From Escherichia coli (GTDB lineage Bacteria; Pseudomonadota; Gammaproteobacteria; Enterobacterales; Enterobacteriaceae), in NCBI RefSeq assembly GCF_003334815.1, contig NZ_QOWO01000006.1: a stretch of DNA of 64,000 nucleotides, one strand, 5' to 3'. The translations under genes and the position numbers were made by a program. The notes beneath the pieces are model-generated. The model saw only the letters and a list, made by a program, of their open reading frames with translations. It did not search any database and was not told the origin of the DNA. Below are positions 51,689-54,596 of this stretch, piece after piece; positions within the stretch are counted from its first letter, which is position 1, and every line of letters begins with the position of its first letter.

Positions 51689-53968
51689 ATGGATGACCAG
51701 TTAAAACAAAGTGCACTTGATTTCCATGAATTTCCAGTTCCAGGGAAAATCCAGGTTTCTCCAACCAAGCCTCTGGCAACACAGCGCGATCTGGCGCTGG
51801 CCTACTCACCAGGCGTTGCCGCACCTTGTCTTGAAATCGAAAAAGACCCGTTAAAAGCCTACAAATATACCGCCCGCGGTAACCTGGTGGCGGTGATCTC
51901 TAACGGTACGGCGGTGCTGGGGTTAGGCAACATTGGCGCGCTGGCAGGCAAACCGGTGATGGAAGGCAAGGGCGTTCTGTTTAAGAAATTCGCCGGGATT
52001 GATGTATTTGACATTGAAGTTGACGAACTCGACCCGGACAAATTTATTGAAGTTGTCGCCGCGCTCGAACCAACCTTCGGCGGCATCAACCTCGAAGACA
52101 TTAAAGCGCCAGAATGTTTCTATATTGAACAGAAACTGCGCGAGCGGATGAATATTCCGGTATTCCACGACGATCAGCACGGCACGGCAATTATCAGCAC
52201 TGCCGCCATCCTCAACGGCTTGCGCGTGGTGGAGAAAAACATCTCCGACGTGCGGATGGTGGTTTCCGGCGCGGGTGCCGCAGCAATCGCCTGTATGAAC
52301 CTGCTGGTAGCGCTGGGTCTGCAAAAACATAACATCGTGGTTTGCGATTCAAAAGGCGTTATCTATCAGGGCCGTGAGCCAAACATGGCGGAAACCAAAG
52401 CCGCATATGCGGTGGTGGATGACGGCAAACGTACCCTCGATGATGTGATTGAAGGCGCGGATATTTTCCTGGGCTGTTCCGGCCCGAAAGTGCTGACCCA
52501 GGAAATGGTGAAGAAAATGGCTCGTGCGCCAATGATCCTGGCGCTGGCGAACCCGGAACCGGAAATTCTGCCGCCGCTGGCGAAAGAAGTGCGTCCGGAT
52601 GCCATCATTTGCACCGGTCGTTCTGACTATCCGAACCAGGTGAACAACGTCCTGTGCTTCCCGTTCATCTTCCGTGGCGCGCTGGACGTTGGCGCAACCG
52701 CCATCAACGAAGAGATGAAACTGGCGGCGGTACGTGCGATTGCAGAACTCGCCCATGCGGAACAGAGCGAAGTGGTGGCTTCAGCGTATGGCGATCAGGA
52801 TCTGAGCTTTGGTCCGGAATACATCATTCCAAAACCGTTTGATCCGCGCTTGATCGTTAAGATCGCTCCTGCGGTCGCTAAAGCCGCGATGGAGTCGGGC
52901 GTGGCGACTCGTCCGATTGCTGATTTCGACGTCTACATCGACAAGCTGACTGAGTTCGTTTACAAAACCAACCTGTTTATGAAGCCGATTTTCTCCCAGG
53001 CTCGCAAAGCGCCGAAGCGCGTTGTTCTGCCGGAAGGGGAAGAGGCGCGCGTTCTGCATGCCACTCAGGAACTGGTAACGCTGGGACTGGCGAAACCGAT
53101 CCTTATCGGTCGTCCGAACGTGATCGAAATGCGCATTCAGAAACTGGGCTTGCAGATCAAAGCGGGCGTTGATTTTGAGATCGTCAATAACGAATCCGAT
53201 CCGCGCTTTAAAGAGTACTGGACCGAATACTTCCAGATCATGAAGCGTCGCGGCGTCACTCAGGAACAGGCGCAGCGGGCGCTGATCAGTAACCCGACAG
53301 TGATCGGCGCGATCATGGTTCAGCGTGGGGAAGCCGATGCAATGATTTGCGGTACGGTGGGTGATTATCATGAACATTTTAGCGTGGTGAAAAATGTCTT
53401 TGGTTATCGCGATGGCGTTCACACCGCAGGTGCCATGAACGCGCTGCTGCTGCCGAGTGGTAACACCTTTATTGCCGATACATATGTTAATGATGAACCG
53501 GATGCAGAAGAGCTGGCGGAGATCACCTTGATGGCGGCAGAAACTGTCCGTCGTTTTGGTATTGAGCCGCGCGTTGCTTTGTTGTCGCACTCCAACTTTG
53601 GTTCTTCTGACTGCCCGTCGTCGAGCAAAATGCGTCAGGCGCTGGAACTGGTCAGGGAACGTGCACCAGAACTGATGATTGATGGTGAAATGCACGGCGA
53701 TGCAGCGCTGGTGGAAGCGATTCGCAACGACCGTATGCCGGACAGCTCTTTGAAAGGTTCCGCCAATATTCTGGTGATGCCGAACATGGAAGCTGCCCGC
53801 ATTAGTTACAACTTACTGCGTGTTTCCAGCTCGGAAGGTGTGACTGTCGGCCCGGTGCTGATGGGTGTGGCGAAACCGGTTCACGTGTTAACGCCGATCG
53901 CATCGGTGCGTCGTATCGTCAACATGGTGGCGCTGGCCGTGGTAGAAGCGCAAACCCAACCGCTGTAA
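51689..53968 (+). CDS. maeB: NADP-dependent malic enzyme (malic enzyme fused to PTA-like domain)
   Basis: 759 aa, [35 protein letters not shown].... Confidence 0.95.
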
Positions 53969-53986
53969 TTTTTTTTAACTCTCACG

Positions 53987-54010
53987 CTTACCCTGAATAT
54001 TCAGGGTAAG
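53987..54010. promoter_or_regulatory. Perfect 24-bp palindrome between maeB and eutS (hairpin or dimeric-regulator site)
   Basis: CTTACCCTGAATATTCAGGGTAAG is its own reverse complement; sits 19 nt after the maeB stop, at the upstream edge of the AT-rich eut promoter region; no strong T-tract follows. Confidence 0.4.
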
Positions 54011-54260
54011 CAGTTTAGCTGCAATATATTAGTAAAGCTTATTACTGAGTTTGCGAATAATAAAAAAAAGCAGTCTATATAATATCTCGATATTATTTTA
54101 TTTATATTCATGCGTTGCATATGAAAGTTTATGCACCACAGCGAATATCTCTCCATTCTTAGTGATCTACCTCACCTTTTAAACGCGCTTGCCGAATTTT
54201 GTTATTTACTCTGACGAAAAATTGTCACGATACACGAAAGTTTTTCACAGGCGGCGACTC

Positions 54261-54596
54261 ATGGATAAAGAACGCATCATTCAGGAATTTGTGCCCGGCA
54301 AACAGGTCACACTGGCGCATCTCATCGCGCATCCCGGTGAGGAACTGGCGAAGAAAATCGGCGTTCCGGATGCGGGCGCAATTGGCATTATGACGCTAAC
54401 TCCCGGCGAAACGGCGATGATCGCCGGTGATTTAGCGCTGAAAGCCGCTGATGTGCATATCGGTTTTCTCGACCGATTCAGCGGTGCATTGGTGATTTAT
54501 GGCTCGGTGGGCGCAGTAGAAGAAGCGTTATCACAAACCGTCAGCGGTTTAGGTCGCTTATTAAATTATACGCTTTGTGAAATGACCAAAAGTTAA
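54261..54596 (+). CDS. eutS: Ethanolamine microcompartment shell protein EutS (permuted BMC domain)
   Basis: Track ORF 54189..54596; start taken at ATG 54261 ([32 protein letters not shown]...) giving 111 aa. Confidence 0.9.

Follow-up and report, generated by a model that had tools for sequence, protein, structure and literature searches.

A palindrome just past maeB in Escherichia coli is probably the 3'-terminal stem-loop of the maeB mRNA

The intergenic region between maeB and eutS of Escherichia coli carries a perfect palindrome that is real, statistically exceptional, specific to this locus and under constraint. Of several explanations for this element, we favour one where the palindrome forms a stem-loop at the very 3' end of the maeB mRNA, so that it would act as RNA and not as a site on the DNA, and we consider this to be probably correct. 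As far as comparison of sequences can tell, the position of the element and the contrast in conservation with its surroundings carry the main weight of this interpretation, with the evidence on the strand being supportive. It would be nothing out of the ordinary but one more representative of a known class, the U-tract-less 3' stem-loop which ends a transcription unit.

Within the window (the whole 64-kb stretch of DNA that was analysed), the 24-mer CTTACCCTGAATATTCAGGGTAAG at positions 53987-54010 reads as perfectly self-complementary. The symmetry had been described as 24 bp in a sequence-only reading and is in fact slightly longer, as one base more on each side is included in K-12, giving 26 bp of perfect self-complementarity (53986-54011, GCTTACCC..GGGTAAGC). 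At position 54012, most other E. coli have a G where K-12 has an A, and the G results in a 28-bp perfect palindrome (CGCTTACCCTGAATATTCAGGGTAAGCG). The element is the longest perfect palindrome of the window, the runner-up being 14 bp, and its length exceeds the maximum (22 bp) found in 200 simulated Markov-1 windows. When up to three mismatches are allowed, the 24-mer still has its sole match in the window at this position, and none of 100 shuffles contained a match. The window is K-12 DNA, and its region from 53900 to 54300 matches W3110 and other K-12 records with 100% identity; in NC_000913.3, where the genes are on the minus strand, the 24-mer occupies 2,576,056-2,576,079 (the coordinate there being 2,630,066 minus the window coordinate). 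The A at 54012, which reduces the palindrome from 28 to 26 bp, is found in about 1,200 of 5,411 records (K-12-type strains). A separate difference was seen at 53969-53976, where K-12-type strains have a T8 run and the other E. coli sequences examined have TTCTTTTTT.

The palindrome is not a repeated element. A 36-mer centred on it was searched by BLAST against 5,426 complete E. coli genomes and was present in 5,410 of them, at one site in each; in 5,399 of 5,411 E. coli records it shows at most one mismatch. The median of "2 places" per genome arises because a palindrome scores on both strands at the same site, as seen in the window as control. That the motif might occur many times in the genome, and so belong to a generic repeat family, had been raised together with its description; the genome-wide search in these 5,426 genomes answers this, the 24-mer site being single-copy. 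Repeat families (REP/BIME and similar) were rejected on this ground and for want of a REP consensus. A mobile-element origin was likewise rejected: neither the palindrome nor the Escherichia-specific segment to which it belongs had a match in the phage collection, no genuine match was found on plasmids (those obtained being mislabelled chromosomes or a likely contaminant), and the flanks of the segment show neither terminal repeats nor target duplications. In Rfam 15 nothing came near a gathering threshold, the best matches having E values of 1.6-9 and scores far below gathering, so that a known RNA family was also rejected. A literature search with the palindrome sequence gave no match. Among the plasmid records, NZ_CP069915.1 of PLSDB (a 19.7-kb Klebsiella oxytoca "plasmid") is 100% identical to the K-12 maeB-eutS spacer at 3189-3354, which is probably due to contamination or misassembly, and several further records labelled as plasmids, 1.4-4.9 Mb in size, are clearly chromosomes.

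The position of the palindrome relative to maeB is precise. The maeB coding sequence (759 aa) occupies 51689-53968 on the plus strand, with its TAA stop at 53966-53968 according to the list of open reading frames and the RefSeq annotation of the W3110 record, and eutS begins with an ATG at 54261 on the same strand; the end of maeB and the start of eutS both match the RefSeq annotation of K-12 W3110. On this strand the stop is followed by a linker of 17 nt (53969-53985, TTTTTTTTAACTCTCAC), delimited from the sequence and by comparison across genera, which holds the motif TTTAA(C/T)T common to E. coli, Citrobacter and Klebsiella. The 5' arm of the stem (GCTTACCCTGA, 53986-53996) thus starts 18 nt past the stop in the sense strand of maeB, and in most E. 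coli one base earlier, from C53985. It is followed by the loop ATAT (53997-54000), itself self-complementary in E. coli, by the 3' arm (TCAGGGTAAGC, 54001-54011), as defined by sequence and fold, and by a degenerate tail (AGTTTAGCT, 54012-54020) with only 3 consecutive U. From 54013 to 54145 the sequence is an AT-rich, untranslated spacer (about 27% GC) specific to Escherichia, which may be the zone where transcripts reading through the hairpin come to an end.

That the transcript would form a stable hairpin just 3' of maeB, and that this hairpin lacks a U-tract, had both been proposed from the sequence; the first agrees with the predicted fold and the second is correct. The RNA is predicted to fold into a stem of 11-12 bp with a 4-nt loop, at -18.0 kcal/mol for K-12 and -20.4 kcal/mol for the 28-mer form. 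The tail which follows the stem is AGTTTAGC; in K-12 it reads AGUUUAGC (AGUUUAG) and in most E. coli GUUUAGCU (GGUUUAG), with GGTTTAGC, GGTTTGGC, GGTTTTCC and GGTCCAGC as variants among E. coli. Better tails are present in E. whittamii (ATTTTTAT, or AUUUUUAU as RNA) and in Escherichia sp. MOD1-EC7003 (GTTTTATT). Stem and loop are those of an intrinsic terminator (stem of about 5-14 bp, loop of 3-8 nt, located 3' of the stop), and the U-tract of such terminators, at least 5 U within about 8 nt of the stem, is missing.

A scan of 53800-54400 returned no terminator-like site on either strand, and a scan of the d-score over the whole maeB-eutS intergenic region gave negative values everywhere, for which reasons a canonical terminator was rejected. 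The Escherichia hairpin has a T-score of 0.9-1.6, compared with 4.5-5.3 in the sister genera. Its d-score (of the d'Aubenton-Carafa 1990 type, combined with modern energies, so that values are relative only) is -33 in K-12, -18 in the common E. coli form, -21 in MOD1-EC7003 and -3.5 in E. whittamii; these values are negative because no more than three or four U are present in the tail. Further downstream, at 54114-54135, TGCATA-N8-TATGCA forms a second hairpin, which is placed by MAFFT against the terminators of other genera; we do not claim it as the old terminator, as it is not conserved as a hairpin among Escherichia.

The sister genera differ in what follows maeB. The DNA past the stop was read at 80 Enterobacteriaceae loci among the matches listed, which were fetched via the MaeB C-terminus, and in many of these Enterobacteriaceae maeB and eutS are adjacent and co-oriented. 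Citrobacter, the K. oxytoca group, Yokenella and Pseudocitrobacter have eutS as the next gene and a GC-rich hairpin with a T-run starting 19-21 nt past the maeB stop (for example GGCGCGGGTTTCTCCCGCGCC-TTTTTATTTT). Hairpins of this kind, GC-rich and with a T-run, also start at +21 in Salmonella and between +15 and +19 in Serratia. On the relative scale given above, the d-scores of these sister-genus terminators are about +30 to +63. The start of the Escherichia hairpin (+18) is therefore approximately at the position of the sister-genus maeB terminator, 15-21 nt past the stop. Compared with Citrobacter, Escherichia has about 130 nt more between the two genes, and the surplus consists of the hairpin and the spacer with 27% GC.

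Other arrangements were also seen at the end of maeB. In Enterobacter, Leclercia and related genera (L035, L038, L053, L054, L065, L069, L071 and L073), REP-like palindromes are repeated 3' of maeB, within the first 120 nt past the stop (CCCTCTCCC..GGGAGAGGG and GCCGGATAAGCG..CATCCGGC), and in loci of this type a convergent gene, not eut, comes next. A Klebsiella pneumoniae locus (L037, 3566-3630) has a U-tract-less hairpin (CGCGCGGA..TCCGCGCG) at +20 and a second hairpin, a canonical terminator (GGCAGGC..GCCTGCC followed by T5), at +51 to +84, a layout which is unlike both E. coli and K. oxytoca. Insertions of 120-270 nt between the terminator hairpin and the eutS block are found in Salmonella enterica (L101/L102, 2085-2500) and in Citrobacter (L026 and L029), where they take away the T-run. 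The junction after the maeB terminator is a hot spot of insertion in several lineages (Salmonella, C. amalonaticus S646 and Citrobacter MGH106).

Conservation within the genus was analysed in 21 Escherichia sequences, comprising 16 E. coli, a divergent "E. coli" species representative, E. ruysiae, an E. albertii-labelled locus, MOD1-EC7003 and E. whittamii. Variable columns number 8 of 28 in the hairpin, 108 of 133 in the spacer and 19 of 115 in the eut block, the difference between hairpin and spacer being highly significant (Fisher p = 1.3e-7). Within E. coli alone the contrast goes in the same direction without being significant (1 of 28 vs 23 of 133, p = 0.08), and the 24-mer core is unchanged in all 16 sequences. 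At one locus (L009), identity to K-12 amounts to 96% for the hairpin and 34% for the spacer.

The changes that do occur in the hairpin tend to preserve its pairing. In the E. albertii-labelled locus (CGTTTACCC...GGGTAAACG), stem pair 3 is changed from C-G to U-A, a compensatory change after which the palindrome is still perfect. Three one-sided changes, in MOD1-EC7003 and E. whittamii, all result in G·U on the maeB-sense strand and in A·C on the opposite one. The sole exception that is compatible with an antisense RNA is the outermost pair of K-12, a C·A in sense, so that the tally is 3 vs 1, which are small numbers. Summed over the alignment, 83 of 84 cells are paired for the plus strand and 80 of 84 for the minus strand. 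Predicted folds of the plus and minus strand have -16.3 vs -7.5 kcal/mol in MOD1-EC7003 and -19.6 vs -15.6 kcal/mol in E. whittamii. Shuffle controls for pairing, based on an alignment of 7 sequences, were not significant (75 of 500). The strand asymmetry may be taken to favour an RNA of maeB sense, as supportive but not decisive evidence.

A relic without function is an alternative explanation, and the palindrome would then be the end of an AT-rich segment inserted in an Escherichia ancestor and kept palindromic by template-switch correction. Hairpin and spacer (about 130 nt, 27% GC) are indeed specific to Escherichia, other lineages also have a hot spot of insertion just past the maeB terminator, and the conservation contrast inside E. 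coli is not significant. A symmetric double change can result from a single template-switch event on a quasi-palindrome, so that the change in the E. albertii-labelled locus is explicable without selection. Against this, the hairpin has changed far less than the spacer within the genus as a whole and at L009. Also, template switching predicts perfect palindromes, and not the persistent asymmetries of G·U type found in two lineages, and searches of the phage collection and of genuine plasmids gave no homologue of the segment. We regard a relic as unlikely, while according it some small probability.

The dyad symmetry itself invites a different interpretation, that a dimeric regulator (of TetR, MerR or Xre type, or EutR) binds the palindrome as a DNA operator, either to control eut or to serve as a roadblock or insulator on the DNA. 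Operators of the AcrR/TetR type are 24-bp palindromes of dimeric repressors, and the perfect dyad of 24-28 bp between maeB and eutS resembles them. In E. coli, E. ruysiae and the E. albertii-labelled locus, the dyad is perfect over 26-28 bp including the self-complementary loop, the change in the latter being symmetric, and the site is single-copy, locus-specific and upstream of eutS. The symmetry is lost, however, in two Escherichia lineages: MOD1-EC7003 has 3 arm changes and a non-palindromic loop of 5 nt, and E. whittamii also has asymmetric arm changes and a 5-nt loop, yet both keep the RNA pairing. Symmetry is thus not conserved across the Escherichia lineages compared. No variants of the MOD1-EC7003 or whittamii type were found among the E. 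coli RefSeq genomes.

The distance to eut argues against an operator as well. The palindrome follows the end of a gene, and about 250 bp separate it from the eutS ATG, which lies downstream. The eutS control block, which is conserved across genera, is also far off, beginning at about 54146 and so about 135 bp further downstream. In other genera this block directly follows the T-run of the terminator, and in Citrobacter, Klebsiella, Yokenella and Salmonella it is present without the palindrome, which does not travel with the promoter that it would control. Being absent from the orthologous eut blocks and about 135 bp away, the palindrome lies outside the conserved eut control region. The half-site spacing is not known to fit the consensus of the ARG box, of Cra/LacI-type sites, CRP, FNR or LexA, or the promoter geometry of MerR-type regulators. 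EutR, an AraC-type protein, belongs to a type not expected at perfect palindromes. EutR has been reported to bind immediately upstream of eutS and thus elsewhere than at the palindrome (PMC4643982). The literature search with the palindrome sequence was likewise without a match. That the palindrome is an ideal site for a dimeric regulator where the eut promoter begins, as the sequence-only reading had put it, is not supported by the comparison, with the site about 135 bp from the block, not travelling with it, and broken in its dyad. We consider an operator to be highly improbable.

Several observations concern the eutS control block and the spacer before it. At 54161-54176, inside the block, there is a CRP-like sequence (AGTGA-TCTACC-TCACC), the half-sites of which are kept in Escherichia, Citrobacter, Klebsiella, Yokenella and Pseudocitrobacter while its 6-nt spacer varies; presumably it fits the reported catabolite control of eut. 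Two direct repeats, ACGAAAAATTGTCAC (54214-54228) and ACGAAAGTTTTTCAC (54234-54248), are 20 nt apart and just before the eutS start codon, and could be a pair of half-sites for an AraC-type protein (EutR) or a feature of the 5'-UTR. The spacer (54013-54145) is fast-evolving, in addition to being AT-rich and restricted to Escherichia. A genomic-SELEX peak of the RpoS holoenzyme has been reported in the eutS-maeB spacer (Shimada 2017; PMC5493296). In one 90%-identity cluster, a 111-aa EutS is placed together with 159-aa EutP sequences, the representative having the length of EutP, an oddity that perhaps stems from a fused gene call.

How the two transcription units are kept apart is suggested by proteomic data for W3110, in which the amount of MaeB could be measured and did not change, and Eut proteins could hardly be detected unless ethanolamine and B12 were supplied (PMC11334477). 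These data imply that constitutive maeB transcription yields no Eut proteins. As MaeB is present, Eut proteins are nearly absent and no other terminator-like site lies between the genes in K-12, some barrier exists. The insulation seen in the proteome could also come from elsewhere, for instance from translation or from silencing of the AT-rich spacer.

The reverse has to be considered too, namely an attenuator by which a condition-dependent share of maeB transcription continues into eutS, so coupling malic enzyme and ethanolamine catabolism in a conserved EUT1 locus. The two genes are co-oriented neighbours in many Enterobacteriaceae, E. coli has no strong terminator between them, and a possible metabolic link was raised in the mSystems paper (PMC11334477). 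The proteomic data argue against coupling, as the MaeB level is unchanged upon induction of eut and hardly any Eut protein is seen in the presence of MaeB (PMC11334477). The strong canonical terminator between the genes in the sister genera points to insulation rather than coupling, and no alternative-pairing partner (antiterminator) conserved with the hairpin was seen in the flanks, which evolve fast. An attenuator is, in our opinion, very unlikely indeed. It is also quite improbable, though slightly less so, that Escherichia swapped a canonical maeB terminator for a U-tract-less palindromic hairpin which is maintained by selection for something beyond the reach of a normal terminator, for instance the combination of an RNA 3' cap with a DNA roadblock or operator for a dimeric protein, or a tunable leak of maeB transcription into eut under certain conditions.

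For the 3'-terminal stem-loop that we favour, the following sequence of events can be envisaged. The stem-loop would form in the nascent maeB transcript, where a tail with UUU only should cause inefficient termination at best. Polymerases that proceed past the hairpin would transcribe about 250 nt of untranslated RNA, in the course of which Rho would most likely halt them. The RNA would then be trimmed back by 3'-to-5' exonucleases as far as the hairpin, which would thus set and shield the 3' end of the maeB mRNA, with constitutive transcription of maeB being kept from the inducible eut operon. Within this explanation we lean towards the hairpin being mainly a barrier to exonucleases after termination further downstream, and a function mainly as a leaky intrinsic terminator is somewhat less probable, although it is favoured by the fact that E. 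whittamii and MOD1-EC7003 have better U-tracts. With respect to the roles that had been suggested for the palindrome, a hairpin which stabilises the maeB 3' end or insulates it agrees with the position, the conservation and the variants that preserve pairing, and a regulator site does not.

Concerning annotation, the palindrome probably marks where the maeB transcription unit ends and is not to be considered part of the eut promoter. The locus is also a small example of terminator turnover, with an unrelated hairpin in Escherichia that has lost the U-tract and is at nearly the same position relative to the gene as the canonical terminator of other genera. If termination by Rho followed by trimming applies, this adds one more case to the class of U-tract-less 3' stem-loops and explains how, in K-12, constitutive maeB transcription does not enter the eut operon, which is under tight induction. 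A specialist would find nothing surprising here.

Among known systems, REP/BIME-type palindromes that stabilise the upstream mRNA are similar in being intergenic hairpins at the 3' end of a gene, but the E. coli hairpin differs from them in being single-copy and without the REP consensus. The canonical intrinsic terminators that follow maeB in Citrobacter, Klebsiella, Salmonella and Serratia occur at nearly the same position and on the same strand, and the Escherichia stem is of comparable or greater length and stability. It is, however, unrelated to these and less GC-rich, with 3 U in place of 5-7 and with negative d-scores in place of +30 to +63 (relative values).

The closest likeness is to the stem-loops described by Dar & Sorek (2018). 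E. coli transcripts subject to Rho-dependent termination are reported there to end right after stable stem-loops that lack a U-rich sequence, to be protected by these against PNPase and RNase II, and to have rut sites placed immediately downstream (PMC6061677). The last point is where the maeB hairpin fits the class less clearly: the first 90 nt or so past it are C-poor (9-12% C), and a stretch with more C than G starts only from about 54104, roughly 90 nt later (the C/G ratio in 78-nt windows is 0.6-1.0 for starts at 53984-54059 and 1.9-2.6 for starts at 54104-54149). In its other sequence features the hairpin conforms to the class, as it is stable (-18 to -20 kcal/mol), is located after the gene at the end of a transcription unit, is followed neither by a U-rich stretch nor by a canonical terminator, and precedes an untranslated region where Rho could act.
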